NCBI GenBank assembly: GCA_022844125.1
Contig: JALHMI010000017.1
Location: 93,687 to 157,686 of the forward strand
From: Pirellulales bacterium
GTDB taxonomy: Bacteria; Planctomycetota; Planctomycetia; Pirellulales; PALSA-1355
DNA: 64,000 nucleotides
Direction: 5' to 3'
Position 1 is the first letter of the stretch. Each line of letters begins with the position of its first letter. Under the pieces are notes generated by a model, which saw nothing but the letters and a program-made list of their open reading frames with translations, did no database searches and was not told where the DNA came from. Of this stretch, positions 22,255-35,572 are shown one piece after another. A program made the translations under genes and the position numbers.

Positions 22255-23243
22255 ATGAGAACGGCGCAAGGCACCACGATCATCTCCAATGGGCAACTTG
22301 TCGACGGGACCGGCGCGGCCCCTCTCGCCGATGCAACCGTTGTGATTCGCGATGGGCGAATCGCTTATGCCGGCAGCGCTGCGGGCGCACCGCAGAGCGA
22401 AAGGGACGCCGCGCGGATCGACGCGCGTGGCGGCACGATCATGCCAGGGCTGGTCGAGGCGCACTATCATCCAACGTATTTCAACGTGGCGAATCTCGAG
22501 GATCTCGACATCAAGTATCCGGTCGAATACGTGACGCTGCTGGCGGCGGTCAACGCGCGGTTGGCGCTGGACTGCGGATATACGGCCGCTCGCAGCGGCG
22601 GCAGCCTGTTCAACATCGACGTCTGGCTGAAGCGCGCGATCGAAGAGGACCTGTTGCCGGGACCGCGGCTGGCGGCCAGCGGTCGCGAGATCTGCGGCAT
22701 TGGCGGGCTGATGGATTGGAATCCCGACTTTCGCAAGATCGGCATGGAAGGACTGGTGTTGCTGATCAACGGGCCGGATGAAGGTCGCCGCGCCGTGCGG
22801 AAGCTGGTGAAGGATGGCATTGAGTGGGTGAAGACCTATCCCACGGGCGACGCCGCGGCGCCGGATACCAACGATCATCACACGCTGTGCATGACGTTCG
22901 AGGAGATGTACGCCGTGGTGGCCGAGGCGCACAACCACAAGTTGAAAGTTACCGGCCACTGCCGAGCGAATGAGGGGATCAAGAACGCGCTGCGGGCCGG
23001 TTACGACACGCTCGAGCACGGCACGTTCATGGACGCCGAGGCGCTCGACATGCTGCTTGCGCGGAATGTGCCCGTCGTGCCGGCGCTGCAATTCGAGTAT
23101 GCCAGTATCGTGCATGGACCCGAGTTCGGGATGTCGCAGCGGGTCGTGGACGGACACCAGGAGACGCTCGACGCGGGCGCCGAGAGCGCGCGGATGATTC
23201 TGCGCTCAGGCGGCCGGCTGGGGATGGGAGGCGACTATGGCTT
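22255..23243 (+). pseudogene. Amidohydrolase (metal-dependent hydrolase) gene, 5' part, interrupted by the integrative element
   Basis: Amidohydrolase-type N-terminus (DGTGAAPLADATVVIRDGRIAY, GLVEAHYH metal-binding HxH). Homology ends at ...GMGGDYG (23241). The listed ORF then runs on antisense to the integrase gene. Confidence 0.8.
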
Positions 23244-23262
23244 ACCGAAGGAGCGTAACCGC
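23221..23262. other. attL (host arm ...GGCGACTATGGCTT | element arm ACCGAAGGAGCGTAACCGCCC)
   Basis: Breakpoint of amidohydrolase homology. Core GGCTT at 23239-23243. Confidence 0.75.
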
Positions 23263-25244
23263 CCGTCTTCGTCTTCTAGCCGGAAAGCCTCTCCCGATAC
23301 CGGGTTAAACGTGGCGGAAACGAGCGTAGAGCGTGCGTTGCCCGGTCCTACGGATTCGGAGCCGGTAGCGATAAACTCACACTCTACGCGGCTTAGGAGC
23401 CCCCTAAGAGCCTCTGCCCGCTGCCTTAGAGCCCGCGTTCCCGAATCGCTCGACATCGCAAGCTTTGCGTTCGCTATCGCCTGTTGAAGGTCGTGCATTT
23501 CGGCCCAGCTCGACCGGACCACTTCGGCTAGGTCCGTCCGGTTCATCCGGAGCCCGGCTAGTCGGCTCTCAAGCTCAGTGAGATGAGCCTTGGCGGTTTC
23601 CTTTGCGGCCGCAGTCGGAAGATCGGCCCAACCGAGCACGAGCCTTTGATACTCCGCTTCAATCTCTTTGATTGCCGTCTCTACGCTGGTCGGATCGAAG
23701 TTCAATCGGTAGCAATCGGCACAGCGGTCAATGAAGTCATCTTGGTCGATCTTGTCAGCGTCCAAGTCTTTCAATATCTGGGTGTACTCGTCAGCGTGGT
23801 TCGCTGCGAGGTAGCCCGTCAATCGGGCGATACCATCACGGAACGATTGCCAGCGTTCAGCTTCACTGCGGTCGAGTTGATCCGTCAAGTTCGGATCGTG
23901 ATCCCGTTCGATCAGCTCTAACCGCTTTCCGGATTCAACGAGATAGCGGTTGATAAGCTCCTCTAGAACGGACTGCTTGACTCCGTTCCGCAGGCAGGGG
24001 CTCTCGGCCAATCGTCCACGAACACGATGCTTGTCCCAAGACCCGCAGTAATACTCTTCACGGTCAGTCCTGGCGATCATCGGAGCCCCGCAGCCAGCAC
24101 AGACCACGAGCCCGGAGAGGTACATCTTGCCGGACTTCGGCACCGCCTTTGACTCACGTGGGCGAAGCTTCCGCTGTACCGCTTCCCACGTCTTCCGATC
24201 CACGAGCGGAGAGAACAAGCGACGGCTGCGAATAATGTCTTCTGATGAATTGGCTGTCTCTCGCCCAGCTAGGTCCGAATCAACCGTGCCAATAGCTCCG
24301 TCCTTGTACGAATGGAACCGGCCTGACCGACGCTTGCTAAAAGTCGCATAGCCCAGATACGTTTCGTCCTCCAGCATCTTGCTGATATCGCGAGCTTGGA
24401 AGAGCTTCCCGAAGCTGTTGCGGATACCAAGATCATTCAGCCACTTCGCCAAGGCAAAGTACGAAACCGATTCAGTGGCGAAACGCTTGAAGACGTTCTT
24501 AGCCGCAGCGAGCTTAGCCTTGTCTCGGGTCGGGACGATCCGCATCACGTGCGTGTCTGGGGAAGTAGCGTAGATGACTTTGCCGTCGAATCGCTCACTA
24601 CGTCCGTCCGGATAAACCTTCAAGCGTCGGATAGAGTACGTAGGCCGCTCACGACCACGCCGAATCTCAGAGCCAACAACGTCTCGGCCCTCGAATACTA
24701 CCCGCCACAGCTCTTGGTCAGTCGCTCTATCGAAGCAGCCCACGTCGAAACCAAGCTTCGGAGGACCACCCATCCACTCGCCAGCCTTGGCCCGCTCGAT
24801 CATGCCGCTAAGAACGCGGTAGCTTTTCTCACGCTGTTCCTTCGTTGAGGTTTTACCAGCGAGCCAAGCAGTAATCTCGGTTGCGTCGTCTTCGCCCGTC
24901 CACTCTCGCCCGCTCGCATCGAACAGACGACAACCAGCGTCCTCAAGATCGCCAAGGTAGCGGAAGAGCCGCTTTGCGTTCTTCGCTCCGAAGCGGTCTA
25001 GCCGGTCCACGACGATCCATTGAAGCTTGCCTTCACGAGCCTGCCGGAGCATCCGTTGAAACTCGGGACGAACAGCGTCCGCATCTCGCTCCCAACCCCG
25101 ATCAACGAACCAGTTCGGATCAGAGATTTTGACAGCGAAGCGAGATTCAAACCCACGGACAGAAGAGTTCTGCCGCTCCGTGTCTTGGGCGTCCGTGGAG
25201 ACACGTAAGTACGCACCCCCAGCACCGATCAGATTTGGCGACAT
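23235..25244 (-). CDS. Large serine recombinase (phage integrase)
   Basis: 669 aa. Resolvase catalytic motif AYLRVSTDAQDTERQ, a recombinase domain, a zinc ribbon CAGCG...CGSW and a coiled-coil C-terminus. The last codons and the stop lie across attL in host DNA. Confidence 0.9.
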   Translation of the reverse strand: MSPNLIGAGGAYLRVSTDAQDTERQNSSVRGFESRFAVKISDPNWFVDRGWERDADAVRPEFQRMLRQAREGKLQWIVVDRLDRFGAKNAKRLFRYLGDLEDAGCRLFDASGREWTGEDDATEITAWLAGKTSTKEQREKSYRVLSGMIERAKAGEWMGGPPKLGFDVGCFDRATDQELWRVVFEGRDVVGSEIRRGRERPTYSIRRLKVYPDGRSERFDGKVIYATSPDTHVMRIVPTRDKAKLAAAKNVFKRFATESVSYFALAKWLNDLGIRNSFGKLFQARDISKMLEDETYLGYATFSKRRSGRFHSYKDGAIGTVDSDLAGRETANSSEDIIRSRRLFSPLVDRKTWEAVQRKLRPRESKAVPKSGKMYLSGLVVCAGCGAPMIARTDREEYYCGSWDKHRVRGRLAESPCLRNGVKQSVLEELINRYLVESGKRLELIERDHDPNLTDQLDRSEAERWQSFRDGIARLTGYLAANHADEYTQILKDLDADKIDQDDFIDRCADCYRLNFDPTSVETAIKEIEAEYQRLVLGWADLPTAAAKETAKAHLTELESRLAGLRMNRTDLAEVVRSSWAEMHDLQQAIANAKLAMSSDSGTRALRQRAEALRGLLSRVECEFIATGSESVGPGNARSTLVSATFNPVSGEAFRLEDEDGRLRSFGKP

Positions 25245-25401
25245 GCTGTGACTCCTTGCGTGACTCCTCTACGGTGTTTTGAAAAGGGCGGCAGGCCGAT
25301 CCGGAGTCACTCGGAAAGATGGCCCGTTCTCGGTAGCTACTCCGAAGAACGTGCCGCCCGAACGGGATTATTACCGATCCCACATGGGTGGGAAAGGCGA
25401 T

Positions 25402-25453
25402 CCCCAAAGAAAAATAAGGGCCGGCTAGCGATGAGGGCAAAGCTAGCCGGCCC
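25402..25453 (-). terminator. Rho-independent terminator
   Basis: 12-bp perfect stem GGGCCGGCTAGC/GCTAGCCGGCCC, followed on the minus strand by TTATTTTTCTTTGG. It lies downstream of the 25708-26016 gene. Confidence 0.65.
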
Positions 25454-25707
25454 CGGCACCAAGGGGCACACTTAAAGAGGCTCCCTTAGCACTCCCCATC
25501 GCTCCTTCAATCTAGAAAAGGGCCGACAAGCTTACTGGAAAACTTGCCGACCCTAAGTTGTCCGTAATCCATTTCAGGCTTCCCGCCATGGGACAACTTG
25601 TTCGATAAAAGCTCGGGGGCCGATACGCGACTGTCACTAACGAAGAAAACCAGTCGCGCATCAAACGTGGTTCACAAGGCCCCGTTGCCCCCGAGCGTCT
25701 CGCGTCT

Positions 25708-26016
25708 TCAAACTCTCGGCCCCACGCTGCGGATTCCGGTTGGTTCCGGAGCTACTTCGGTCGCTGCGATTCCGGCCGACAGCTTCGCCATCTCAATCAA
25801 ACGGCGTGCTGACAAGTCGCCCACTACGTCGCGAACAACAACCTCGCCAGGCGTAGAGTTGGAACCATAAACCCAAACACCACCGCAAATCTTGGCGGCC
25901 CGATGTTCCTTTCCATTCCGATCCGTTACGGTAGTCTCGCTGATTGACGTGACCGTCAAAGCGTTGACCACGACGGGCTCACCGCTGACTTTGTAAAAAG
26001 TAAAAATCTTGTGCAT
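25708..26016 (-). CDS. Hypothetical phage-element protein
   Basis: ORF 25708..26136. ATG at 26016 (MHKIFTFYKV) is preferred. No recognisable motif. Confidence 0.4.
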   Translation of the reverse strand: MHKIFTFYKVSGEPVVVNALTVTSISETTVTDRNGKEHRAAKICGGVWVYGSNSTPGEVVVRDVVGDLSARRLIEMAKLSAGIAATEVAPEPTGIRSVGPRV

Positions 26017-26129
26017 AGAGTTCTCTCCGGCTGATGAGTCCCTTAGATCGTATCGCTTGAGCTTGGCACGAGACGCGGCGGCTAGTCTCCTTTGCCGCCG
26101 CGTGTCTCGCACCGCTCGACTTCGTGACT

Positions 26130-26528
26130 TCACCATTTCATCGGAGCCATTGGCATCAGCATGTCGTCGTCTTCGTTCTCAACGATGACGTTCTGGACTT
26201 CGGTTTCGCCGTTGTCCCGAGCCCCGCAAGTACAACGCTTCTTGCCCTTGCCGTGCCGCTCGTTGACGACTTGCTTCCAGTCAATCTCCTGAGGCACCAG
26301 AAGGTCTTGCTGGTCGTTGTCGATCAAGTGCGACTGCTGTTGCGGGAGTCCTTGCCCGTTCTGGGCCAGTAGGATGGCGAGCATCGCAGCGTGTTGCGGA
26401 TTGTTGAGCATCTCGTTCAAGACCTGGAGCTGTCGGGGCGTGAACGACTTGATCTGCTCGTTGATGTAGCCGCTCGGGGTCGAGTTGGTTTCGAGCCGGT
26501 ATCCGGCTAAATGCTGTCGAAGTGACAT
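26130..26528 (-). CDS. Hypothetical phage-element protein
   Basis: 132-aa ORF in the same leftward gene string. Q-rich middle and acidic C-terminus. No family recognised. Confidence 0.4.
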   Translation of the reverse strand: MSLRQHLAGYRLETNSTPSGYINEQIKSFTPRQLQVLNEMLNNPQHAAMLAILLAQNGQGLPQQQSHLIDNDQQDLLVPQEIDWKQVVNERHGKGKKRCTCGARDNGETEVQNVIVENEDDDMLMPMAPMKW

Positions 26529-26539
26529 TTTGATTTTCC

Positions 26540-27076
26540 TTAAACTGAAGCTGAATCGAATTGCCGTTGAATCTGTTTCAGACGAGCATCCGTCTCCGCA
26601 ACAGATTGACTAATGCGTTCCTGGCGTTCTTCTTGCCACGTCTTCGGGGTGAGGCGTCGAACTACTCGCTCCAGGCTTGAGACCATCACTTGGACTTCGG
26701 CAACCTGCTTTGCGAGCCGTTCAAGCTCGTCAAGCTCGTCTGGTTGAATGGGCGGAATGTTGGCCGGAGAACCGGACGGACTGCCCATGCCTCGCAGCCA
26801 AGATTGTTGCTGCTGGATCGTGTCCCTGAGTCGCGTGTAGTCCTTGCTATAGCGGTCGCGACGTAGCGTCCAGAACTCAAGCTTGATCTTGAACCGACCA
26901 AGCTTGTCCTTCGGGGGCTCGCGAAAGTTGTAGTGGCCCATGTCGCCTTCACGAACTTGGGCACCATTCTGAAACACGATCCGCGTTCCACTGTTGCGGT
27001 TGATCTTTTCGTACTCGCAACCCTGACGCCCGGCGAACTCTTCAAACTCGTGACCAATCATTGTTGTTGCCCTCAT
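26540..27076 (-). CDS. Hypothetical phage-element protein
   Basis: 178-aa ORF whose ATG overlaps the TerL stop (ATGA at 27073-27076), suggesting translational coupling. Coiled-coil-like C-terminus. Confidence 0.5.
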   Translation of the reverse strand: MRATTMIGHEFEEFAGRQGCEYEKINRNSGTRIVFQNGAQVREGDMGHYNFREPPKDKLGRFKIKLEFWTLRRDRYSKDYTRLRDTIQQQQSWLRGMGSPSGSPANIPPIQPDELDELERLAKQVAEVQVMVSSLERVVRRLTPKTWQEERQERISQSVAETDARLKQIQRQFDSASV

Positions 27077-28665
27077 CTACCATACAGGTTCATAAAACTT
27101 CGCCACTCCGCTCGGGAGTCGTCGTTGCCACCTTGGGCGAGACGCTTCATCTCATCTTGGTAGGCTTGTCGCCGAGCATTGATGCTCGACTCTGACGCAT
27201 ACTTGGGGTCGAACATATCGCGACCAATCAGCCGCGTGTGAGTTCCGGTCAACTCCGTCGCTGCGATCAACGCCAAGGCGAAAGCGGTTCCCAAGTCACC
27301 GTGACCCGTAGCAGCATCACGCGGGCTAACGAGTCGGAAGCCATAGCTTTTCTCTTCGATCCTCATCCGGCGAAGATCACGCCGCAGGACTTCGTCGGGA
27401 AACAAGTCAACCTTCCGGTCGTTGAAGGCTTCTATGACGGCAGTAGCCATTCGCTGTAGATTGGCTCCGCTCGGAGTGATCTCAACCATCGGCAGTCGAG
27501 AGAGCGTCAGCCGTTGCGACATATGAGTCGCTTGCCACGGATCGAAATTGATCGCCTTGAATTGGTAGCCACGGTGGAGCGTAAGGACTTTCCCTTCAAC
27601 GTCCGACAAGTTGACCTTCGATCCCCGAGAGGGACGCCAGACCTTCGTATAAGCCAGTCGGATTCGGCCATGCTCGCTAGTGTCTCCTGCCTCCCATGAG
27701 TTCTTTCTCCGGACAGCGAGCACGCATAGAGCGGAAGCATCCCGAGTCACGCCTAAGTCAAGCCCGGCAACAAAGTCCCATCCCTCTGTTCTGGGCGGTA
27801 GCTGCTTTAGCTCTGGCTTAAAGGCTGCTTCGATATCTTCAGCCGTGAGAGCATCGCCGCCACCCGTAGACCAATTGTTTCCCCAGAGCCGGTCGTAAGC
27901 GACAGGGGGAAGCATCCGCCTCTGTTCTTCAAGTCGATCTTCGGTGAGCCAAGATGCCTTCGGCCCGTCGAGCCGAGAGAACAGCCAGCTTGGATCCATC
28001 CGAACTGCTTCACGCACGGCCCATTGCCAACTGTCGATGAAGCCCGCGTTGCTGATAACCGCCAATACACAGTCGCTACGCTTGGCCGCTGAACTGATAA
28101 TCGAGTGCCAAAGGCTTCCATCTCCGAGCCAATGCGTGAGCTCATCGGAAATTAAAAACGAGGGGAGTAGGCCATAACTTGAGGCTACGTCTGACGTGAA
28201 AATCGTCAGGCTAGCGTCTTCGCCGGGATGCCGCTTGCCGATGTTCACGACCTGATTCTTTTGGACTTCGAGTAGCTCGCCTAGCCAAGGATTCAACCGG
28301 CAGAGGACTTGAATAGCGTCCTTCAGCAGTCCCGCTTGATCGCGATCAGCAGCGAACGCATAACCCTTGATTGGTCGAGTAGCGAACGCAAGAGCCCACG
28401 AAGACATAACCGCAAGGTCCGTGGTCTTGCTGTGACCACGACCCCGTTCAAAGTAAGCTCGCATCACCGGCTGAGTCTTGCTCTTCTCTGGAGCACGACC
28501 GACGCACTTCAACCAGCCCGCGTCGAGGCTCGCGAAGTCTTCCCGCTGCCAGGAGTCCATGACTTCGGAAAATCGCCGCACCCGTCCGTCCACGTCGACT
28601 TGGAGCGCATCCCTGAACTCCTTCGGGTTGTTGGCGAACTTCTGGAAGGTAGTTGATGAGATCAT
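27073..28665 (-). CDS. terL: Phage terminase large subunit
   Basis: 530 aa. Walker A-like ERGRGHSKT and Walker B-like FLISDELTHW. Nuclease half with GLDLGVTRDASALCVLA and HGDLGTAFALALIA. The layout fits the Terminase_1/COG4626 type. Confidence 0.8.
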   Translation of the reverse strand: MISSTTFQKFANNPKEFRDALQVDVDGRVRRFSEVMDSWQREDFASLDAGWLKCVGRAPEKSKTQPVMRAYFERGRGHSKTTDLAVMSSWALAFATRPIKGYAFAADRDQAGLLKDAIQVLCRLNPWLGELLEVQKNQVVNIGKRHPGEDASLTIFTSDVASSYGLLPSFLISDELTHWLGDGSLWHSIISSAAKRSDCVLAVISNAGFIDSWQWAVREAVRMDPSWLFSRLDGPKASWLTEDRLEEQRRMLPPVAYDRLWGNNWSTGGGDALTAEDIEAAFKPELKQLPPRTEGWDFVAGLDLGVTRDASALCVLAVRRKNSWEAGDTSEHGRIRLAYTKVWRPSRGSKVNLSDVEGKVLTLHRGYQFKAINFDPWQATHMSQRLTLSRLPMVEITPSGANLQRMATAVIEAFNDRKVDLFPDEVLRRDLRRMRIEEKSYGFRLVSPRDAATGHGDLGTAFALALIAATELTGTHTRLIGRDMFDPKYASESSINARRQAYQDEMKRLAQGGNDDSRAEWRSFMNLYGR

Positions 28666-29057
28666 GTCGCCGCTCCTTCCAACCAGGGAGCACTACGCAT
28701 CTTCCGCTCTGTGCCGAGCATCCGAGCCAAGTTCGATAGAGTGTTGACGCCCACAATCCATCTCGACATCAACTCGGCCTTGGTCTTCGCATCAACGGTC
28801 GGATCGGCTAGTGAGACTTCAACGTTGGAAAGAGAAGCCTCAAGCCAAACGAACCGCTCAAGCATCGACGCTTTGATCTGGCTTAGATCGTCGAGCCCGC
28901 CAAGGTCGGTAGCGATGGAGTCGAAGCGTTCGCGAAGAGCACGAGCAAGCTCAGTGCGTCCGTCCAGCGAAGCAATGAAGCCCGCTTGGAACTTCGCCGG
29001 CAGCTCTTGCGGCTTGTTCTTGGCGTTCTTTCGCGTGCCTTGGCTGGTGCGAGGCAT
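28662..29057 (-). CDS. Putative terminase small subunit
   Basis: 131-aa basic N-terminus protein immediately upstream of terL, overlapping it by ATGA. The call rests mainly on position and size. Confidence 0.45.
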   Translation of the reverse strand: MPRTSQGTRKNAKNKPQELPAKFQAGFIASLDGRTELARALRERFDSIATDLGGLDDLSQIKASMLERFVWLEASLSNVEVSLADPTVDAKTKAELMSRWIVGVNTLSNLARMLGTERKMRSAPWLEGAAT

Positions 29058-29116
29058 TGTCCGTACCTATAGCTCGGATGACTAGCATTAATCCTCCCTA
29101 TAGTGTACGTACGTTC

Positions 29117-29177
29117 ACGTTGTAAAGTAAAGGTATCTAGCGGGTATTTTTAAGGCCCACCGGGGCAGTGCTTTACG
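29117..29177. promoter_or_regulatory. Regulatory repeat block L (GTAAAG ... TAGCGGG ... CGGGGCAG ... CTTTACG) upstream of the terminase operon
   Basis: The same ordered motifs recur at 30078-30153, upstream of the resolvase operon. Confidence 0.5.
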
Positions 29178-29184
29178 TGTCGTC

Positions 29185-29775
29185 CTACGCTTTAAGAACG
29201 GAGTAGATCGTCGGTCGAGAGAGGCCTACGGCAGCAGCGATAGCCGTGATCTGCTCTCCGTCCTTACGCATCGCCTTGATGGCCTTGAGTTGCGTATCGG
29301 TTACACGCTTCCGAACACCAGGCAGCGACCCGCCCCATCGTTTGCCTTGTGCTTTTGCTTTCGCTTGTCCCGCTGCTACTCGCTCGCCTCGCACTTCCGT
29401 CTCGTATTGAGCGACAGACGCCAAGACGTTCGCCATCAGTCGCCCTGCGGGTGTGCTAAGGTCGAGCCCGTCCTTGAGCGAGACTAGGTTCACCTTCCGC
29501 TCTCTCAACTCATCGAACAGAGCGGTGAGCCCCTTAGCCGTGCGGCCTAGTCGATCTATTCGCCACACAACCACAGCCGAGACTCGGCCTTGTCGTATCG
29601 CTGCTTCTAGCTTGCTCCAGGCGGGTCGATCCATGCTCTTGCCGCTCGCCTTATCGCGGTAGTACACGACGGGAAGGTCTTGAGCATCGGCCCATCGCTC
29701 CAGATCAGGCTCCTGTGACTTCGTCTCCTGTACCGCAGTCGAGACTCGTAAATAGATCGCAACGTATTTGCCCAT
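29185..29775 (-). CDS. Small serine recombinase (resolvase/invertase type) with C-terminal HTH
   Basis: 196 aa. VAIYLRVSTAVQETKSQ catalytic motif, VVVWRIDRLGRT, and a C-terminal HTH ITAIAAAVGLSRPTIYSVL. Confidence 0.85.
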   Translation of the reverse strand: MGKYVAIYLRVSTAVQETKSQEPDLERWADAQDLPVVYYRDKASGKSMDRPAWSKLEAAIRQGRVSAVVVWRIDRLGRTAKGLTALFDELRERKVNLVSLKDGLDLSTPAGRLMANVLASVAQYETEVRGERVAAGQAKAKAQGKRWGGSLPGVRKRVTDTQLKAIKAMRKDGEQITAIAAAVGLSRPTIYSVLKA

Positions 29776-29777
29776 GA

Positions 29778-29981
29778 CTAGTTCCTCTCAGCAGCACGTT
29801 TAGCTTTTGCAATCTTCACCGAGCGATCCAACACGTGGTTGGCGTAGTCCTCCCAGTGGACCCCAAGGGAATAGGCAGCCTGCGGACTCTCGCCCCTAGG
29901 CAACACGTGTTGGGCTTCTTCCAAGCTAGTGGGAAGGTCCAAGTCCTCGGCCACGTTGGACCACCATTGCTCAAACGTCAT
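29778..29981 (-). CDS. Hypothetical small protein
   Basis: 67-aa ORF ending 2 nt upstream of the resolvase start, probably in the same operon. Confidence 0.4.
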   Translation of the reverse strand: MTFEQWWSNVAEDLDLPTSLEEAQHVLPRGESPQAAYSLGVHWEDYANHVLDRSVKIAKAKRAAERN

Positions 29982-30048
29982 CGCAGTTCTCCGGTTAGCG
30001 TAGTGAACATATGGCCACTACCTAGAGTCTAGCGTTTACCACACGTGT

Positions 30049-30153
30049 CGTAAAGGACGATCTACTAACGAGCCTTTACGAACGTAAAGTAGCGGGATCG
30101 GCACTATTCGCCGGGTTCTAGCGGGGCAGCCGGAGGGAGAGTGAAACTTTACG
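30049..30153. promoter_or_regulatory. Regulatory repeat block R, including the perfect palindrome CTTTACGAACGTAAAG (30074-30089)
   Basis: CGTAAAG at 30049, the palindrome at 30074-30089, TAGCGGG, CGGGGCAG, and CTTTACG at 30147. Confidence 0.5.
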
Positions 30154-30217
30154 CCCAGAGGTTTCGAGCGGAGCGGCTCGGGTAGGGGCTGATCGGGAAG
30201 AGAGGTTAGGGAGCGGC

Positions 30218-31276
30218 CTAAGACTCAGCGAGATCACACTGCCCTAAGCGCAATACGAAGTCCGCATTGAACTGCTCAACGGATTTGATCCGATCTACAG
30301 CGACAACGAAATTGACATTTGGGACTTTTAGAAGCTTCTGTGACGTAGTTGCTCCTCCAAAGATTCCATCAAATGGATGAGAGTACCACTTAAGCCAACT
30401 GGCCAATGTGGTTCTCGAAATGGACCCCAACGTACAGAAGAACACATAGTGCTCGGACTTTTTGATAGAGTCTCTCATACCGTCATCCAGATCACGCCAC
30501 ATGTAGTACTGCATCCAGTCTTGAAATTCCTTCTTCTTGAGGGCAGGCATGAAGACAATTACAACCTGCTGATACTTCCCGCCCACGAGCTTGTATCTGA
30601 ACGCCGAGTCTGCAAAGCGAAGCTCTTGACCATCAAATCTTAGAAAGCCAAGCCGCTCAAGAATGGCTTTCCCCGCCTCAATAATCCCTTCGGACTTTCG
30701 ATACATTGGTAGCGTATAGAACGCCGATTCGGCTTCACGCTTTTGGCTATCCAACGCTCGTTGGCGAAGTAGCGGACGGAGAACGTGGTTGAGCCGAGAC
30801 TTTAGCCGTTGGCGGAACGCCTCATTGGGGCTCGTCCACCAAATTATATTCTTCATCTGGAGGTCGAAGTGGATCTTTCGGTTGCCATGCTCGTCATCGT
30901 CTCTTGGTCGCGAGTGATCGCCGCGAGCGATGTAGATCACGGGTTTCCCGCTCGCAAAGGCATATCCAGCTTCGTAGTACACGGATGGCCTAGCGTAAGT
31001 CAGATCGGCTATGCAAAGGTCAGACGCATCTAGCAACTCCATGATCTTGTCGTCTATGTCGTCGTTATGCTCCGTTCGGTTTACCCGCAAGGGCTGAATG
31101 TCCATCTCGCGAAGAAGCTTTTTAACTACTTTGTCATAGATCGCGTCCACGTCATCCCAGTCGAACGCACTAGCGATAAAGCATTTCAGTTTCACGCCGG
31201 GACTCCCACCATTGCGAAGGGTAAGCAAACCACCATAATATTGACAACTCCCGCTAAGTGCCAAGAGCTGATTTGG
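30218..31276 (-). CDS. Nucleoside 2-deoxyribosyltransferase-like / TIR-like (Rossmannoid) domain protein with an unknown C-terminal domain
   Basis: ORF 30218..31336. Possible starts are ATG 31336, 31309 and 31276, or GTG 31195 (preceded by GGGAG). N-terminal KLKCFIASAFDWDD ... DLCIADLTYARPSVYYEAGYAFASGKPVIYI matches the NDT/DUF1863-type motif layout. Confidence 0.6.
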   Translation of the reverse strand, partial: PNQLLALSGSCQYYGGLLTLRNGGSPGVKLKCFIASAFDWDDVDAIYDKVVKKLLREMDIQPLRVNRTEHNDDIDDKIMELLDASDLCIADLTYARPSVYYEAGYAFASGKPVIYIARGDHSRPRDDDEHGNRKIHFDLQMKNIIWWTSPNEAFRQRLKSRLNHVLRPLLRQRALDSQKREAESAFYTLPMYRKSEGIIEAGKAILERLGFLRFDGQELRFADSAFRYKLVGGKYQQVVIVFMPALKKKEFQDWMQYYMWRDLDDGMRDSIKKSEHYVFFCTLGSISRTTLASWLKWYSHPFDGIFGGATTSQKLLKVPNVNFVVAVDRIKSVEQFNADFVLRLGQCDLAES

Positions 31277-31326
31277 CATCCGTGGTCCTACACCGTCGTT
31301 CCAGCTCATCAGGAGAGATCGAACAA

Positions 31327-32025
31327 ATGGCAACAATCGTGTGGATCATCCTCTTGATTGTGACTTTCGTATGGACGCTTTCCTCCAGACTCATCTACAA
31401 CCTCGCAATTGCTCCCTTCGAGCCCGCATTGCGTCAGTGGTTGTTCTTCAAAGCTCCAGTGAGGCTTCTTAATCGCATCGTACTCTCAGCGGTCAAAGGA
31501 GCCGTCAACGGGCGAACCCACGCAGACGCAATGTTTGAGTTGGTCACGATCCGCATCTTCGTGGTCTTCCTGCCTATGTTGCTTATGTTCGGCCTCGCTG
31601 CCGGTCTAGCCGATATGTCCATTGAGAACCTAAATGCGAAGCTAGGCATTGTGGTCGAAGAAGCCCCGGCTCTGACGCCAGAGCAAGAACTGGAGCGTAT
31701 AACCTTCAAGAGCCGCTTCTATCGAACGCTGATCGGCATCGGGATAGTATTGATGTTTGGGAGCTTCGCTCTGTCGTCATTCGCCAGCATGCGCTCTCGC
31801 ATGTCGTTTACTCACCAGAGAACCATGAGCAAGCTCCAGCCCTTTCTGACTCCGGAGGAACTTCACGAATTGATGATTGTCGAGCACGGCGTACATACCG
31901 ACGCGGCTACCTACCGATACATCTCCGCAGTTCAACGCATGACAGACGCCCACGGCCTGTCCGACATTGCGCATATCTGGCCCCGTCGCCTTGTTCCTAA
32001 TCAAACTGTTGCCGACCAAGGCTAA
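31327..32025 (+). CDS. Hypothetical 3-TM membrane protein
   Basis: ATG at 31327 preceded by AGGAGAG. TM segments IVWIILLIVTFVW, IFVVFLPMLLMFGLAAGLA and LIGIGIVLMFGSFALSSFA. Divergent from the NDT/TIR-like gene. Confidence 0.6.
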   Translation: MATIVWIILLIVTFVWTLSSRLIYNLAIAPFEPALRQWLFFKAPVRLLNRIVLSAVKGAVNGRTHADAMFELVTIRIFVVFLPMLLMFGLAAGLADMSIENLNAKLGIVVEEAPALTPEQELERITFKSRFYRTLIGIGIVLMFGSFALSSFASMRSRMSFTHQRTMSKLQPFLTPEELHELMIVEHGVHTDAATYRYISAVQRMTDAHGLSDIAHIWPRRLVPNQTVADQG

Positions 32026-32285
32026 TCGTCCTCCGTGAACGGCTCTCCGTTCAAAATCTTCGTGTAGGCTTTCTCCAACGAGCGGGAGAACTGAACAAAG
32101 TTTCGCATCTCAGTTAAGTCGATCCCCTTCAAACCGAGAGCCAAAAGCCGCTCGCCTAACTCTAGACTAGGCTCGACCCTCGCCAAACTGGCCCGAATCT
32201 GTTCAAGGAACTCGCGTATCTCATCGTCGCTGATCCGTTCCCAATCGAGCATGCCCTCTACGTGATCTTCATGGAAGTCAACCAT
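32022..32285 (-). CDS. Hypothetical small acidic protein
   Basis: 87-aa ORF overlapping the stop of the TET/JBP-like gene by 8 nt. It is the last gene of the leftward operon. Confidence 0.45.
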   Translation of the reverse strand: MVDFHEDHVEGMLDWERISDDEIREFLEQIRASLARVEPSLELGERLLALGLKGIDLTEMRNFVQFSRSLEKAYTKILNGEPFTEDD

Positions 32286-33129
32286 TGCGTCTCCTCAGTC
32301 GCATAAGTTCCTCCGATCCCAAGTTGCCGCACGTCTGAAGCCTCTCACGGAAATACATCACCGTGGAGATACGCTCCCAGCCTGGCTCGCCGATGATCGG
32401 CGTGTTTCCGTGGTACTCGTGAACGTCCGCGAGCAACACGTCTCGGTCCCGAAGATCCACCGCCACTCGATACTGGGGAAATACCAAGAGCCCACCGCTG
32501 TAGTTTCCCGAGCGGAGAACGCTCATAACGCCAAACCCAGCAGCCAAGTCGTTCTTGTCGGTATGAACGCGAGTCCGAAGGTTTCGATTCACCGTGACGG
32601 TCGTGAAAACCGTATTTGGTATTACGAAGTCTTTCGCAGTTCGTGCGACTACTTCCGCCTGGGCCGCGTAACGTTCAGGCAACTCCGATTTGAATATCAG
32701 ATTGGCCGCCTGAGCATAGGCGATGATTCGACTGTAGCCGGCCAAATCTGAGCGGGTGAATGCGGTAGCTCGACACGTCGGCTCGCGGCGACTGCGGCCG
32801 AAGTAGCCCACGATGCCGCTCTCAGCAGCGATCGCAGGCCGCGTCTTCTTGAACTTTCCGTCCGGCCCACGTTTCTCGGGCTGGAGCCCAGCCACCGTTG
32901 CCCGGTTATACGTGACCCTGGCCGCTCTCCGCAGTGCCGGCAGGGCTCGGGTCGAGATATCCTCCGGCATCGCCGCATGGCGGTACACCAACAGCGGAGA
33001 GCCGTCTGGCTTGAGCACCGTCGTATCTTCGCCGGTCACTAAATAATCAAAGCCCCGTTCTATGAACTTGCCTTCGAGTTTCTTCACGTCCTTGTCGAGC
33101 ATCGAGCCGAGTAGCCGGATCAGTTTCAT
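32278..33129 (-). CDS. TET/JBP-family 2OG-Fe(II) dioxygenase-like protein
   Basis: ATG at 33129 overlaps the upstream stop (ATGA). HxD motif RVHTDKND, then GGLLVFPQYRVAVDL..DVLLADVHEYHGNTPI (distal His) and RISTVMYFR (Arg), matching the Tet_JBP motif order. Confidence 0.6.
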   Translation of the reverse strand: MKLIRLLGSMLDKDVKKLEGKFIERGFDYLVTGEDTTVLKPDGSPLLVYRHAAMPEDISTRALPALRRAARVTYNRATVAGLQPEKRGPDGKFKKTRPAIAAESGIVGYFGRSRREPTCRATAFTRSDLAGYSRIIAYAQAANLIFKSELPERYAAQAEVVARTAKDFVIPNTVFTTVTVNRNLRTRVHTDKNDLAAGFGVMSVLRSGNYSGGLLVFPQYRVAVDLRDRDVLLADVHEYHGNTPIIGEPGWERISTVMYFRERLQTCGNLGSEELMRLRRRNG

Positions 33130-33677
33130 GGCTGCTGCCCTTTCTGGTGCTTGTCGTATGCCTCGCGTACGATCCGACAAACCGTCACGCCAGTCTTTTC
33201 AACCAAGGGATCATTAAGCTGTTCCATATGACGGTTGAATTCCCGGAAGAGTTCGACCGTGACCGGGAGTTTGATCTCCATTCCGTCTTCGTCTTCCCCT
33301 TCGTCCTTCTTATCTTTGCGACCTTTCGATGGTCCGGCGAGATGCGCTCTAATTACCTCAAGGCTCGCATCTTGAAGTTTCGCGGCTTCGATCTCAGGCC
33401 ACTTGCTCGCGACCTTCATGTACCATCTCGCCGTCACTGCCGACGCCTTGAAGTTTTTAGTGAGCCAATCACCCCACTCCCCATGCTCCAAGCGGCTCTT
33501 GGCTTCGTTTAATGCCTCTCCGGCTGCCCGCACATGCGCATTCGCTCCGGCCATGCGAGTCCGATACAGACCCTCATACGCTTGATGATTCTCGTTTGCT
33601 TGCTCGGCCAGTTCGGCCAGAGCGGCGGATTGGTCGGCCTCAAAACGAAGAACCCTTTTCGTTTTGTCGTCTGCCAC
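33126..33677 (-). CDS. DUF3102-like phage/plasmid regulatory protein
   Basis: 183 aa. HGEWGDWLTKNFKASAVTARWYMKVA resembles the DUF3102 signature (GxWxxWL...S.rtAqrYM). Confidence 0.5.
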   Translation of the reverse strand: MADDKTKRVLRFEADQSAALAELAEQANENHQAYEGLYRTRMAGANAHVRAAGEALNEAKSRLEHGEWGDWLTKNFKASAVTARWYMKVASKWPEIEAAKLQDASLEVIRAHLAGPSKGRKDKKDEGEDEDGMEIKLPVTVELFREFNRHMEQLNDPLVEKTGVTVCRIVREAYDKHQKGQQP

Positions 33678-33844
33678 TTCTGCGTACTCTCCAACTCGGC
33701 TCTCCTTGGGATCACCTTGTGCGATCCGCTACCTGGGTTATAGCCGTCGAAAACCAGCGCACTTTTCGAGCGTTTCCGATGCGAGAGACGAACGGCAGGC
33801 GAGGATCGACGTTTGTGAATTTGGGAAACGTCGCGTCCTAGACG

Positions 33845-34162
33845 CTAAGAGAGGCTTTCACGCCAAGCGGCTTGCTTGCACTTGGCTGAGCAGTACATCG
33901 CATCCCGGCGATGTCGCTTGAATGGCTTTCCGCACTGCTCACAGAAAGCCTTGCCCGAAAGCGGATCAACCGCTCGCTCTGCTTGGATCTCTTGCCGTCG
34001 ACGTTCGATGAACCCTTGTCGACGACATTCAGCCGAGCAGAACCGCTGGAGAGGATGAATGGGCGTGAAAGTTGAGCCGCAGTGCTCGCATCCTAAACGC
34101 TTAACGGTAACGGTTACCGCTCGTTGTTTAGGTTGTCGGCTTGTGGCTTTCTTGCGTGGCAT
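33845..34162 (-). CDS. Double zinc-ribbon protein
   Basis: ATG at 34162 (MPRKKATS). Two CxxCG...FCSxxC units (CEHCGSTF..FCSAEC and CEQCGKPF..YCSAKC). Confidence 0.5.
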   Translation of the reverse strand: MPRKKATSRQPKQRAVTVTVKRLGCEHCGSTFTPIHPLQRFCSAECRRQGFIERRRQEIQAERAVDPLSGKAFCEQCGKPFKRHRRDAMYCSAKCKQAAWRESLS

Positions 34163-34169
34163 GAGGTTG

Positions 34170-34433
34170 TTATAGCAAACCCAGGGCATCGGCCGCATCA
34201 GCTCTGGCATCTTCGATGATCTCGAACTGCCCTGCCGAAAATCTCGGCCCCTCGTCATCGGCGATGCACCACGCCCATTGATCGTTGCGGCGGTAGAGCG
34301 TCACTGTCACGCCCTCCCAGTGCCTCCAGTAGTTGCCCCTAGCTGATCGTCGCCAAGCGTCGGGGTTCTCAAAGTTTTGTCGTGCGGCTCTAGCCGCTTT
34401 GAGTTGTTGGGCTGCTTCGCTAAGTTTTGGCAT
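34170..34433 (-). CDS. Hypothetical small protein
   Basis: 87-aa ORF, first gene downstream of the 34497-34650 repeat array. No family recognised. Confidence 0.4.
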   Translation of the reverse strand: MPKLSEAAQQLKAARAARQNFENPDAWRRSARGNYWRHWEGVTVTLYRRNDQWAWCIADDEGPRFSAGQFEIIEDARADAADALGLL

Positions 34434-34496
34434 CGTCGTGTACCCTTAAAAATCGCGTCTATCCCGTCTGCCCCGCCTATCGACGCTCGGGCAATT

Positions 34497-34650
34497 CGTC
34501 CCGAAACCCTAGTTGTCGCGAACGTCTTACACGCTTTTCGACTACCCTTTCGGGACGGCAGAAATTGCGAGAATCTCCGTACTAGTGGGAGGAGTTTTAA
34601 GTACGTTTCGGGACGGATATTTTCTTCAAGCAAACTAGGGTTTCGGGACG
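34497..34650. promoter_or_regulatory. Iteron/operator-like array: 4 copies of TTTCGGGACG(G), with the outer two forming an 18-bp perfect inverted repeat
   Basis: CGTCCCGAAACCCTAGTT (34497-34514) pairs with AACTAGGGTTTCGGGACG (34633-34650). Direct copies sit at 34548-34558 and 34606-34616. Confidence 0.6.
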
Positions 34651-35336
34651 GTTTTTCGCCTACCGTCTTCAGAAAGCTCCCCACGCTGAAATGCCTGAAA
34701 GTAAGCGTCCATCGGATAAGGTTCGTCCTTCCATTCATCCCAGAAGCGACCAACCGTTGATTTGGAGATATTAAACAGCGCAGCCACTTCGCGGATTGAT
34801 TGTGTTTCGAGTGCCGTCAGCACTTCGGTTGTCAGCGGCCAAGCCAGTTGCGGCTTCCGTCCACAGCGGCCACTCCGTTTGGTCGCCTTGCTGTGCCTCT
34901 CAGATTCCGTGAGTGATGGGTGCTCGATGGTCACGAGCGGCACCCCATCGGCCATCTCCCAGAGCTTCTTCAACTCTTCGGACGTTGGCTCTGCGTTGAT
35001 GTTTGTCCAGTGATGATAACTGGCTGAGCGAATGAACCGCGACACGTCCCCACTAACTATCGGAACGTTGAACTTCTTCGCAGCACGCACTGCTTTCTGG
35101 AACAAGGGTCGATAATTGAGTTGCCCTCGCTCCACACCGGCGATTGTCATGCGCGCACGTCGTCCGAACGCAGATCGTATCGTCGCTTCGCCGTACTCTT
35201 GCTGCGTGACGAGGCTTTTAACTTGTCCAGGATTGTCGGAGCTGGCCCGGCAGTAGTGGATACACGCGGAAAAGTTTTCGGCCGCATCGGGCAGGAATAG
35301 AAACCCGGTATCGGGTAAACTAAGACTAGTGGACAT
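34635..35336 (-). CDS. Divergent resolvase-type serine recombinase homolog with C-terminal HTH
   Basis: 233 aa. IHYCRASSDNPGQ...TQQ aligns to the YxRVSxxxQ...Q motif and VPIVSGDVSRFIRS to lvVxxlDRlxRs. C-terminal GRCGRKPQL...SIREVAALFNISKSTVGRFW is HTH_7-like. Confidence 0.5.
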   Translation of the reverse strand: MSTSLSLPDTGFLFLPDAAENFSACIHYCRASSDNPGQVKSLVTQQEYGEATIRSAFGRRARMTIAGVERGQLNYRPLFQKAVRAAKKFNVPIVSGDVSRFIRSASYHHWTNINAEPTSEELKKLWEMADGVPLVTIEHPSLTESERHSKATKRSGRCGRKPQLAWPLTTEVLTALETQSIREVAALFNISKSTVGRFWDEWKDEPYPMDAYFQAFQRGELSEDGRRKTVPKP

Positions 35337-35349
35337 CGTTTTTAATCCG

Positions 35350-35399
35350 AACCTCCTAGCCTGATCTTTGCCGGACTGGGCTAGGAGGTTTGTTTTTTC
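35350..35399 (+). terminator. Terminator-like hairpin near the right end of the element
   Basis: 12-bp perfect stem AACCTCCTAGCC/GGCTAGGAGGTT followed by TGTTTTTT on the plus strand. Confidence 0.5.
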
Positions 35400-35530
35400 G
35401 ACGGGCTCTAAACCCGTTTCATTCCCGCTCTCTTGCGGGATAGGTCTACATCGAGCGAGTCTCCTGTTAGGCCAGGTGTTTCTGGAGCTGAGGACCGCTA
35501 GCTAGGCGGATTCGGAGCAATCGGAGCAAA

Positions 35531-35572
35531 GGGCGGTAGCGATCTTCCGGCTTCGCGTGGAATCCACACGGC
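35531..35572. other. attR (element arm GGGCGGTAGCGATCTTCCGGCTT | host arm CGCGTGGAATCCACACGGC)
   Basis: Amidohydrolase reading frame resumes at 35552. Core GGCTT at 35549-35553. Confidence 0.75.

Follow-up and report, generated by a model that had tools for sequence, protein, structure and literature searches.

A phage dioxygenase of the TET/JBP family has often been pictured as acting on 5mC laid down by a C5-methyltransferase (C5-MT) encoded next to it. That picture, on which a sequence-only reading of the present locus relied, is outdated: a C5-MT gene occurs in only about 6% of the phage contigs that carry a 5-methylpyrimidine dioxygenase (5mYOX) (PMC13229309). Most phage 5mYOX enzymes lack such a neighbor and oxidize thymine to 5hmU, and many of them need an upstream ParB-like activator (Burke 2021, PMC8256090; O'Toole 2026, PMC13229309). 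The adjacent C5-MT defines clades A and B; members of clade C are inactive on 5mC in vivo (PMC13229309).

When ParB176 is present, the ParB-associated 5mYOX176 turns ∼35% of T into 5hmU; by itself it converts ∼1% (PMC13229309; preprint table). Both the NBD and the CTD of ParB176 are required; mutation of the CTP-binding residues in the ParB-like protein has little effect, and the CTD is indispensable; in an AF2 multimer model the C-termini of 5mYOX176 and ParB176 come together (PMC13229309). How ParB activates the dioxygenase was left unexplained by the 2026 study (PMC13229309). Many ParB-type pairs yield just 0–2% 5hmU in E. coli (PMC13229309; preprint table).

The locus considered here, in a window of 64 kb (the whole stretch of DNA that was analyzed), departs from this scheme in one component. 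The enzyme class is already characterized; the partner is the new element. We give roughly 60% to the reading in which this locus specifies a thymine dioxygenase of two components, the activator being of DUF3102 type, that acts on DNA after replication.

The dioxygenase and its relatives

The product of the central gene is a genuine TET/JBP-family dioxygenase with an intact active site. Its features are as follows.

32278..33129, minus strand: 5-methylpyrimidine dioxygenase (TET/JBP, 5mYOX), 283 aa; Pfam, AF2, Foldseek and residue conservation
32563-32565, minus strand: Fe(II) ligand H189
32557-32559, minus strand: Fe(II) ligand D191
32410-32412, minus strand: Fe(II) ligand H240
32371-32373, minus strand: 2OG-binding Arg, R253
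Residues ∼76-107 (32 aa): short variable insertion

The start codon is the ATG at 33129-33127 and the stop is the TGA at 32280-32278; this ATG is favored over a longer ORF beginning with TTG because homologs start at the MKLI position. Read from the translation, the motifs RVHTDKND, GGLLVFPQYRVAVDL, DVLLADVHEYHGNTPI and RISTVMYFR follow one another in order. The sequence-only reading had taken them for the HxD pair, the distal His and the 2OG-binding Arg of the Tet_JBP family, and had named loss of the HxD...H triad on alignment, or placement with AlkB or prolyl hydroxylase, as outcomes that would speak against it. Neither is borne out. H189, D191, H237 and H240 are kept in 90/90 relatives and R253 in 89/90; Tet_JBP (PF12851), the sole Pfam domain of the protein, is matched over profile positions 5-164 of 164 with E 1.8e-22 and 79.8 bits, the gathering cut-off being 34.9 bits; and all 462 homologs among the scored candidates are PF12851 proteins.

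The AF2 model (pLDDT 91.8), a double-stranded beta-helix, is closest to CcTet, NgTET1, TET2 and CMD1 (Foldseek E ∼1e-13 to 1e-10, TMq 0.56–0.68). TET-family structures fill the top 26 matches, with FTO appearing only afterwards at a TMq of about 0.4; JBP structures are absent from the matches. A profile search of PDB sequences with the TET family gave nothing at E≤0.01. At the C-terminus, 16 residues follow the invariant C267; the model forms a helix at 270-282 that fits the family consensus EELxRAKxR. Most relatives have a longer extension.

A very remote reading has this protein working on RNA, a nucleotide or a small molecule instead of DNA, or sees in it an inactive leftover within a prophage in decay. 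It would accommodate the inactivity of some clade C1 enzymes without ParB in published assays (PMC13229309) and an island devoid of capsid genes. It sits poorly with catalytic residues that are all intact and almost invariant among relatives, with best fold matches that are DNA-bound TET enzymes, and with the behavior of characterized relatives, which act on DNA and are inactive on nucleosides and nucleotides (PMC13229309). Decay is argued against by intact ORFs and by an island architecture that is kept in two related loci (L001 and L104).

Relatives of the dioxygenase number 402 in IMG/VR, and those with ParB partners are 39–45% identical to it over the full length. The four closest (P0003, P0005, P0020 and P0028) each have an upstream gene of 190–210 aa overlapping the TET start. 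Across 100 related loci the upstream gene is ParB-like in 73, among them that of Pelagibacter phage HTVC112P (ParB_N, E 2.9e-10), and DUF3102-type in 13, the window locus included. The dioxygenase may belong with the ParB-associated 5mYOX enzymes; the placement is indirect, made through its identity to the IMG/VR relatives that have ParB partners, and the NJ tree carries no support values. The variable insertion, which has been linked to activator dependence (PMC13229309), differs systematically in length between the two types, with a median of 33 aa in DUF3102-type loci versus 53 aa in ParB-type loci.

The partner gene and its neighbors

The dioxygenase gene overlaps its neighbors on both sides, and further genes lie upstream.

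33126..33677, minus strand: partner protein, 183 aa, GTG start; Pfam DUF3102, conserved position; predicted activator or targeting subunit
33348..33635, minus strand: helical domain (DUF3102) at the N-terminus of the partner, residues ∼15-110; phmmer, Pfam
33138..33275, minus strand: C-terminal module of the partner, residues ∼135-180, a divergent copy; hhalign, HMM cross-matches
32022..32285, minus strand: acidic ORF, 87 aa, pI 4.47, overlapping the dioxygenase stop
33845-34258, minus strand: Zn-ribbon protein, true start probably internal; Pfam Zn-ribbon, homolog in L005
34170-34433, minus strand: 87-aa upstream protein; phmmer homologs in L001 and L005
34635-35336, minus strand: 233-aa HTH protein; Pfam HTH, homologs in L001 and L005

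The translational coupling proposed earlier holds on direct reading: the TGA of the DUF3102-type gene and the ATG of the dioxygenase gene overlap as ATGA, and the dioxygenase stop overlaps the acidic ORF by 8 nt. That ORF is probably a real gene, with coding-like composition (GC1/2/3 of 0.59/0.31/0.67). It has no homolog in 102 related loci, and no Pfam, PHROG or PADLOC match except DUF6437 at E 0.058; judged from those loci, the dioxygenase system does not conserve it, and a role as third subunit is rejected on the same ground. PADLOC defense models match neither this ORF nor the dioxygenase nor the partner. The HTH, 87-aa and Zn-ribbon genes (33845..35336) run in the same direction as the dioxygenase gene, in an order that matches L005. 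A scan for promoters and terminators gave none above shuffled controls. A 372-aa gene resembling Nuc_deoxyrib_tr was considered as a 5hmdUMP sanitizer and set aside; it is taken as cargo because its best match is a TIR-type defense effector model and its position is unconserved.

The partner carries DUF3102 (PF11300, E 8.9e-8), with the motif HGEWGDWL...S..TA..YM..A, and aligns over its full length with the partner in L001 (E 8e-20). Word-indexed homolog searches gave just 2 and 15 proteins; the exhaustive phmmer search used instead recovered 3810 representatives at E≤1e-3, covering residues ∼15-125. No fold is assigned to DUF3102 or to the C-terminal module, because the AF2 model is poor (pLDDT 59.6, from a 5-sequence alignment) and Foldseek found no match to it below E=1. 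The partner profile met just a spurious ClpC1 coil match among PDB sequences, and a ribbon-helix-helix reading of the C-terminal module found no support.

It is the end of the protein that connects it to the ParB-type activators. Compared by hhalign (A4 against A3), the C-termini of DUF3102-type partners and the CTD of ParB-type activators align with a probability of 97.3% (E 2.3e-11) across the last ∼50 residues of the former, and HMM cross-matches between the two types are reciprocal. An HMM built from ParB-type CTDs alone matches the C-termini of the L103-L106 partners and those of several DUF3102 proteins in a global library, among them P0211 (1.6e-18). The same HMM matches 84 genes among 8,421 ORFs, and each of them either precedes a TET gene, directly or by a few kb, or belongs to a TET locus. 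At the level of the family, then, these profile comparisons make the C-terminal module of the partners homologous to the ParB-type CTD. The window copy is divergent: it lacks the GT(S/D)N motif and reaches only 7.8 bits against the ParB-CTD HMM, at the homologous position 142-179; its homology therefore rests on transitivity via L001 and the family profile.

The other half of the protein differs. The N-domains of ParB-type and DUF3102-type partners cluster apart, and a ParB_N-positive seed leads jackhmmer to each of the 73 ParB-type partners and to no DUF3102-type one. The ParB N-terminal (CTPase-fold) domain was not found in the window partner, which has DUF3102 in its place.

The C-terminal module makes the DUF3102 gene a likely functional partner of the dioxygenase. 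It can also be supposed that the dioxygenase is a stand-alone T-dioxygenase, and that the DUF3102 protein, co-transcribed by chance, has no link to it and regulates transcription or replication of the island. DUF3102 domains are indeed widespread and mostly lie away from TET genes, a ParB-independent subclass of T-dioxygenases exists (PMC13229309), and the CTD match of the window protein is weak. We nevertheless think this unlikely: a DUF3102-type partner stands in the same position with the same overlap in at least 13 loci; position and start/stop overlap are kept across Planctomycetota-like, Acidobacteriota and Chloroflexota loci despite diverged N-domains; among the 8,421 ORFs the module is confined to genes neighboring TET genes; and its presence predicts what comes after. 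Each of three DUF3102 proteins with the CTD (P0211, P0154 and P0198; 3/3 testable cases) is followed by a TET gene, against neither of two without it (P0139 and P0142).

A small mobile island

The pair resides in an element distinct in composition from its surroundings (GC 0.51–0.58, flanks 0.63–0.67).

23239..35553, no strand assigned: mobile island, 12.3 kb; composition, split amidohydrolase
23235..25244, minus strand: large serine recombinase, the island integrase; Pfam Resolvase, Recombinase and Zn_ribbon_recom
27073-28665, minus strand: terminase large subunit; Pfam TerL_ATPase, E 5.5e-7
28662-29057, minus strand: coupled 131-aa gene, possibly the small terminase subunit; conserved in L001 and L008

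The island interrupts an amidohydrolase gene, which can be read in frame across the junction (GGDYG | FAWNPHG; Pfam Amidohydro_1 on the left part). A core GGCTT is common to both ends (23239-23243 and 35549-35553), and the stop codon of the serine recombinase falls just past the left junction. The insertion is not at a tRNA gene, as a tRNA scan found none. Pfam detects no portal or capsid genes in the island; its terminase layout is repeated in L001 and L104.

Substrate, mechanism and known systems

The sequence-only reading saw neither a C5-MT nor a glycosyltransferase gene in this element, and that stands: Pfam finds no methyltransferase or glycosyltransferase in the island ORFs (16/16), and a six-frame motif scan of the 64-kb window finds C5-MTase motifs I, IV and VI nowhere together. 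Nor were a kinase, a GATase or an amino-acid:DNA transferase (AADT) found in the island. The missing methyltransferase is no longer a puzzle, because the enzyme is of a class that is now characterized and most likely hydroxylates thymine; the clade that contains its relatives oxidizes thymine to 5hmU (PMC13229309). Among the three substrates considered earlier, JBP-like formation of 5hmU is the best supported, host 5mC is possible and a non-DNA substrate is unlikely. On this analysis thymine, rather than 5mC, is most likely the substrate.

A 5mC enzyme would have to draw on methylation from the host, a helper phage or a distant C5-MT, giving 5hmC as in clades A and B. Purified 5mYOX97 and 5mYOX176 are comparably active on 5mC and T in vitro (PMC13229309), the C5-MTase scan covers just 64 kb of the host genome, and the structural neighbors of the model are all 5mC enzymes, though no thymine-specific JBP structure is among the matches. 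These points keep the idea in play as an improbable one. The island and window hold no C5-MTase, adjacent C5-MT genes mark clades A and B, clade C is inactive on 5mC in vivo, and the relatives are ParB-associated and tied to thymidine-hypermodification genes: ParB-type loci have GATase and P-loop kinase clusters downstream, and in the DUF3102-type locus L013 genes for a P-loop kinase and an AADT (PF18724) come after the TET gene.

Characterized members of this 5mYOX lineage convert T in DNA to 5hmU; on double-stranded DNA they depend on an activator encoded alongside them (PMC13229309). For the window locus we infer thymine as the substrate, a need for the partner, the mode of docking and the biological role. 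In this reading the 283-aa protein is the 5-methylpyrimidine dioxygenase, an Fe(II)/2-oxoglutarate enzyme from the phage 5mYOX lineage; the coupled 183-aa protein upstream would serve as its activator, in place of the ParB-like protein of most relatives; this partner keeps the small C-terminal module, with the DUF3102 helical domain replacing the ParB nucleotide-binding head; the module may dimerize, dock on the dioxygenase's C-terminal helix, or both; the DUF3102 domain may engage DNA; and the pair would oxidize T in particular sequence contexts. The island carries no kinase, amino-acid:DNA transferase or glycosyltransferase; therefore 5hmU or further oxidation products would be the end product. 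The modified base might mark the DNA of the element, and possibly that of the host or a helper phage, in an anti-restriction or an epigenetic-like role.

A wider proposal, which we hold tentatively and at slightly less than even odds, is that proteins joining DUF3102 to this CTD form a second, non-ParB class of cognate activators for the thymine dioxygenases of mobile elements, in which the small shared CTD is essential and the ParB CTPase fold and the DUF3102 domain are interchangeable, DNA-engaging heads. If so, there is a third 5mYOX subclass, whose main home would be satellite-like integrative islands in genomes of Planctomycetota-like bacteria, Acidobacteriota and Chloroflexota, and the inactivity of some ParB-less clade C1 enzymes assayed alone could be explained. 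The natural domain swap, with a ParB head exchanged for DUF3102 and the CTD kept, suggests that the functional core conserved between the two types is the C-terminal module; the DUF3102-type pairs are an immediately testable set. For DUF3102, a widespread domain of unknown function, one architecture would acquire a functional context, and thymine-oxidizing systems, as predicted here, would be found not in phages alone but also on small chromosomal islands with a terminase and without a capsid.

Among known systems, the eukaryotic TET enzymes (CcTet 7vpn, NgTET1 4lt5, hTET2 7ne3, CMD1 7cy4) give the best structural matches to the AF2 model, but they share only 12–17% sequence identity with the dioxygenase, have 5mC as their substrate and work without a partner protein. 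The trypanosomatid JBP1 and JBP2 resemble it in the predicted T to 5hmU chemistry in DNA. In JBP1 the residues H189/D191/H239/R255 have an HxD...H...R spacing nearly identical to that of the window enzyme; the latter, however, has no J-DNA-binding or SWI2/SNF2 domain and no glucosyltransferase step, and the relation is distant. The phage 5mC dioxygenases of clades A and B (Burke et al., PNAS 2021, PMC8256090) share the Pfam family and the catalytic motifs; their adjacent C5-methyltransferase and downstream transferases are missing from the window island.

The ParB-independent T-dioxygenases (clade C2; 5mYOX89/97) likewise have neither C5-MT nor ParB gene and oxidize thymine, as predicted for the window enzyme. 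They differ in lacking a C-terminal extension and a conserved upstream partner and in having variable insertions of 45–62 aa, whereas the window enzyme has a conserved, coupled partner that bears the activator CTD.

The ParB-dependent thymine dioxygenases of phages (clade C1 of the 5mYOX enzymes, called ‘clade E’ in the preprint, with 5mYOX176/ParB176 as an example; O'Toole et al., PNAS 2026, PMC13229309) differ from the window locus in the partner head (a ParB_N nucleotide-binding fold rather than DUF3102), in the variable insertion (median 53 aa versus 32), in the kinase, GATase and AADT genes missing from the window island, and in being carried by a phage genome rather than a chromosomal, serine-recombinase-integrated island without capsid genes. 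They are of the same Tet_JBP lineage, and share with the window locus a partner gene immediately upstream, often overlapping; the absence of an adjacent C5-MT; a dioxygenase helix after the last conserved Cys; and a partner that ends in a homologous C-terminal module of ∼50 aa.

The dioxygenase and its overlapping neighbours

Three overlapping ORFs lie on the minus strand and code for an acidic protein, the dioxygenase and its DUF3102-type partner:

32022-32285, minus strand (start 32285, end 32022): acidic ORF of 87 aa; the dioxygenase TGA falls inside it
32278-33129, minus strand: dioxygenase ORF, 283 aa, ATG start, TGA at 32280-32278
33126-33677, minus strand: DUF3102 partner ORF, 183 aa from a GTG; its TGA shares ATGA with the dioxygenase ATG

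The sequence-only reading had described four Tet_JBP motifs in the 32278-33129 product and overlaps with the genes on either side. All four motifs are there, and both overlaps (the ATGA with the upstream stop, and the dioxygenase stop within the 87-aa ORF) can be read directly. Assignment to the Tet_JBP family is upheld by two kinds of evidence: the Pfam match to PF12851 covers the entire profile (E 1.8e-22, 79.8 bits; gathering score 34.9), and the structural matches put TET enzymes first. The AF2 model, built from a 27-sequence alignment (pLDDT 91.8, pTM 0.87), has only TET-family proteins as its top PDB matches, namely CcTet, NgTET1, hTET2 (TMq up to 0.68) and CMD1. A different 2OG oxygenase clade, which would have refuted the sequence-only reading, is not what these searches give; FTO, of the AlkB family, ranks below the TET enzymes, at TMq ~0.4. 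Nor is the catalytic triad lost on alignment: H189, D191, H237, H240, R253, Y259, R261 and C267 are invariant among the 27 sequences, and among 90 non-identical relatives from the fetched loci the first four are present in all and R253 in 89. A word-indexed search gave 462 homologues among scored candidates; among the matches listed, every homologue carries PF12851 and the closest non-self one has 54% full-length identity.

The 87-aa product has a pI of 4.47 and its ORF a coding-like codon-position GC; Pfam gives it no significant family. Homologues are absent from all the related loci examined; it is therefore best treated, on comparative grounds, as an element-specific gene outside the conserved system.

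A DUF3102 head on an activator-type C-terminus

The lack of a methyltransferase was the central puzzle of the sequence-only reading, and published work removes it. Burke et al. found that phage TETs of clades A/B oxidise 5mC made by an adjacent C5-cytosine methyltransferase (C5-MT), whereas clade C/D enzymes are inactive on 5mC, one clade C2 enzyme oxidising thymine (PMC8256090). O'Toole et al. showed that phage 5-methylpyrimidine dioxygenases (5mYOXs) with no neighbouring C5-MT are thymine dioxygenases, making 5-hydroxymethyluracil (5hmU) after replication; a C5-MT occurs in only ~6% of 5mYOX contigs (PMC13229309). One large subclass, their clade C1 (the preprint's ‘clade E’), requires an upstream ParB-like activator on dsDNA: 5mYOX176 gives ~1% 5hmU alone and ~35% with ParB176. 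Both the N-terminal and C-terminal domains of the activator are needed; mutations of CTP-binding residues change little. Activator-dependent dioxygenases bear a C-terminal extension, placed beside the activator C-terminus in a multimer model. Some clade C1 members have no ParB, and some of those are inactive in assays (PMC13229309).

IMG/VR holds 402 confirmed relatives of the dioxygenase, and 19 species-representative genomes carry one. Cultured phages are represented, among them Pelagibacter phage HTVC112P, with the gene order ParB-like, dioxygenase, FkbM methyltransferase. ORFs were called in 103 sequences and the gene directly upstream of the dioxygenase was classified for 100 loci: 73 are ParB-type, 13 DUF3102-type and 9 other, with a contig edge in 5. 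The ParB label is sound, because the 73 proteins still form a single cluster when stripped of their last 65 residues, and jackhmmer from the ParB_N-positive N-domain of HTVC112P retrieves exactly those 73. Nearly all DUF3102-type loci come from bins of bacterial genomes, Acidobacteriota and Dehalococcoidia among them; a Gemmataceae genome has a partial relative. Each of the four closest relatives looked up has an upstream gene of 190-210 aa with an 8-nt overlap of the dioxygenase start. A neighbour-joining tree has DUF3102-type dioxygenases on several basal branches, and the ParB-type enzymes nest among these; as the tree is without support values, this is a hint only.

The window's upstream protein is itself a DUF3102 protein (PF11300, E 8.9e-8, Pfam). 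Its public record is a 142-aa product, P0121, beginning at internal Met42; matches from the exhaustive search start near residue 15 when the 183-aa protein is counted from its GTG, and the record is therefore probably too short. DUF3102-type partners have two modules in common: a helical N-terminal domain (motif HG.W..WL...S..TA..YM..A) and a C-terminal segment of ~50 residues. The second is shared with the ParB-type partners. An HMM of DUF3102-type partners matches ParB-type partners too, always within their last 50-60 residues, and profile-profile comparison of the C-terminal segments gives 97.3% probability (E 2.3e-11, 63 columns). An exhaustive search of 1.8 billion representatives supplied further DUF3102 proteins for the reciprocal test: an HMM of ParB-type C-termini alone matches them at their C-terminal ends (for example P0211, E 1.6e-18; P0172, 5.9e-16), and it also matches the partners in loci L103-L106. 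Run over all 8,421 ORFs called in the fetched sequences, the same HMM matches 84 genes; each of the 84 is partner-type and either precedes a dioxygenase gene, directly or by a few kb, or shares its locus. A Tet_JBP gene comes next in all three DUF3102 proteins with the module that were looked up (P0211, P0154, P0198) and in neither of two without it (P0139, P0142). The window partner aligns end to end with that of the related locus L001 (E 8e-20). Its own C-terminal module is divergent, scoring 7.8 bits on the ParB-type HMM at the homologous position; this match is the weakest link of the homology chain.

The only strongly length-variable internal segment of the dioxygenase lies between N75 and G108. 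The window protein has 32 residues there; the median length is 33 in DUF3102-type loci (range 11-45) against 53 in ParB-type loci (range 33-62). Domain swaps tie this variable insertion to activator dependence (PMC13229309).

At a few loci (L062:56-445, L002:5857-6639, L022:5053-5769) a protein with the activator C-terminal module lies a few kb upstream of the dioxygenase, not adjacent. A P-loop kinase directly precedes the dioxygenase in L062 and L002; the L062 protein with the module has only 129 aa, scarcely more than the module itself.

The carrying island

23239-35553: low-GC island of 12.3 kb, whose large serine recombinase integrated it into an amidohydrolase gene
30218-31336, minus strand: 372-aa TIR/nucleoside-deoxyribosyltransferase-like protein (PADLOC TIR effector model, E 8e-10; Pfam Nuc_deoxyrib_tr, E 1e-6)
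31258-32025, plus strand: membrane ORF, 3-4 TM, divergent from the 372-aa gene

GC falls from 0.63-0.67 outside to 0.51-0.58 between ~23.2 and 35.5 kb. The amidohydrolase frame stops (...GGDYG) at 23241 and picks up (FAWNPHG...) at ~35551, with a common short core, GGCTT, at 23239-23243 and 35549-35553. The recombinase stop codon (23235-23237) lies just beyond this crossover core; the final integrase codons thus come from the host flank when integrated, and would differ in the excised form.

Besides the three ORFs and the two genes listed here, the island codes for the large serine recombinase and a resolvase, for the terminase large subunit together with a 131-aa gene coupled to it, for HTH and Zn-ribbon proteins and a further protein of 87 aa, and for three small unknown proteins. 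No methyltransferase, glycosyltransferase, portal or capsid protein is among the island genes, which bears out the earlier remark on the first two; a six-frame motif scan of the whole 64-kb window found no C5-MTase signature.

L001 and L104 repeat this layout of partner, dioxygenase, genes for regulation or replication, terminase and large serine recombinase; L103 and L005 match it in part. The island seems to be a small, conserved integrative element, not a decayed prophage, and is possibly a phage satellite: the layout shared on the unrelated contigs L001 and L104 suggests a phage-satellite-like family. A local GC dip to 0.51 at the 372-aa gene and membrane ORF suggests that these are separately acquired defence-type cargo.

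Two related islands adjoin Mg_chelatase (ComM-like) gene fragments (L103:5436-8361, L104:7912-8214), which points to that gene as the target of their serine recombinases; here the target is an amidohydrolase gene. The Zn-ribbon ORF is 137 aa long by the longest-ORF rule and shares 89 nt with the conserved 87-aa ORF, the two together spanning 33845-34433 on the minus strand. It probably starts at an internal Met, and it has weak matches to HNH/NinG-type zinc ribbons.

Substrate, mechanism and place among known systems

Thymine is the favoured substrate, because of the missing C5-MT in the 64-kb window, kinship with the ParB-associated clade, and the hypermodification genes of L013. The related ParB-associated clade has loci with downstream GATase-like and P-loop kinase genes. 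L013:9403-13417 is a DUF3102-type locus from a genome bin of the Acidobacteriota. There the partner and dioxygenase genes are followed by those for a P-loop kinase, an amino-acid:DNA transferase (PF18724, scoring above threshold) and a PLP-enzyme-like protein. It is a thymidine-hypermodification cluster with a non-ParB partner, and its genes correspond to the pathway by which 5hmU becomes hypermodified thymidine. Against this, characterised enzymes oxidise 5mC in vitro as well (PMC13229309), and the part of the host genome covered is the 64-kb window.

In the proposed mechanism, a translationally coupled message yields partner and dioxygenase; the partner's C-terminal module would dimerise and/or dock on the dioxygenase C-terminal helix, after the ParB176 model, and the DUF3102 head would stand in for the ParB head, keeping the enzyme on duplex DNA so that it oxidises thymines to 5hmU in preferred contexts. 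Since the island has no downstream transferases, 5hmU or further oxidation products would be the end mark, set either on DNA of the island ahead of its packaging or on co-resident DNA; the role may be restriction protection or an epigenetic-like function. Family, fold, active site, gene coupling and the C-terminal homology are established here, and the substrate, the need for the partner, the docking geometry and the role are inferences.

The enzyme is a further member of a recently characterised class. The DUF3102-for-ParB swap in its partner appears to be a new variant: a literature search for DUF3102 gave only unrelated papers and no description of such a swap, which is directly testable.
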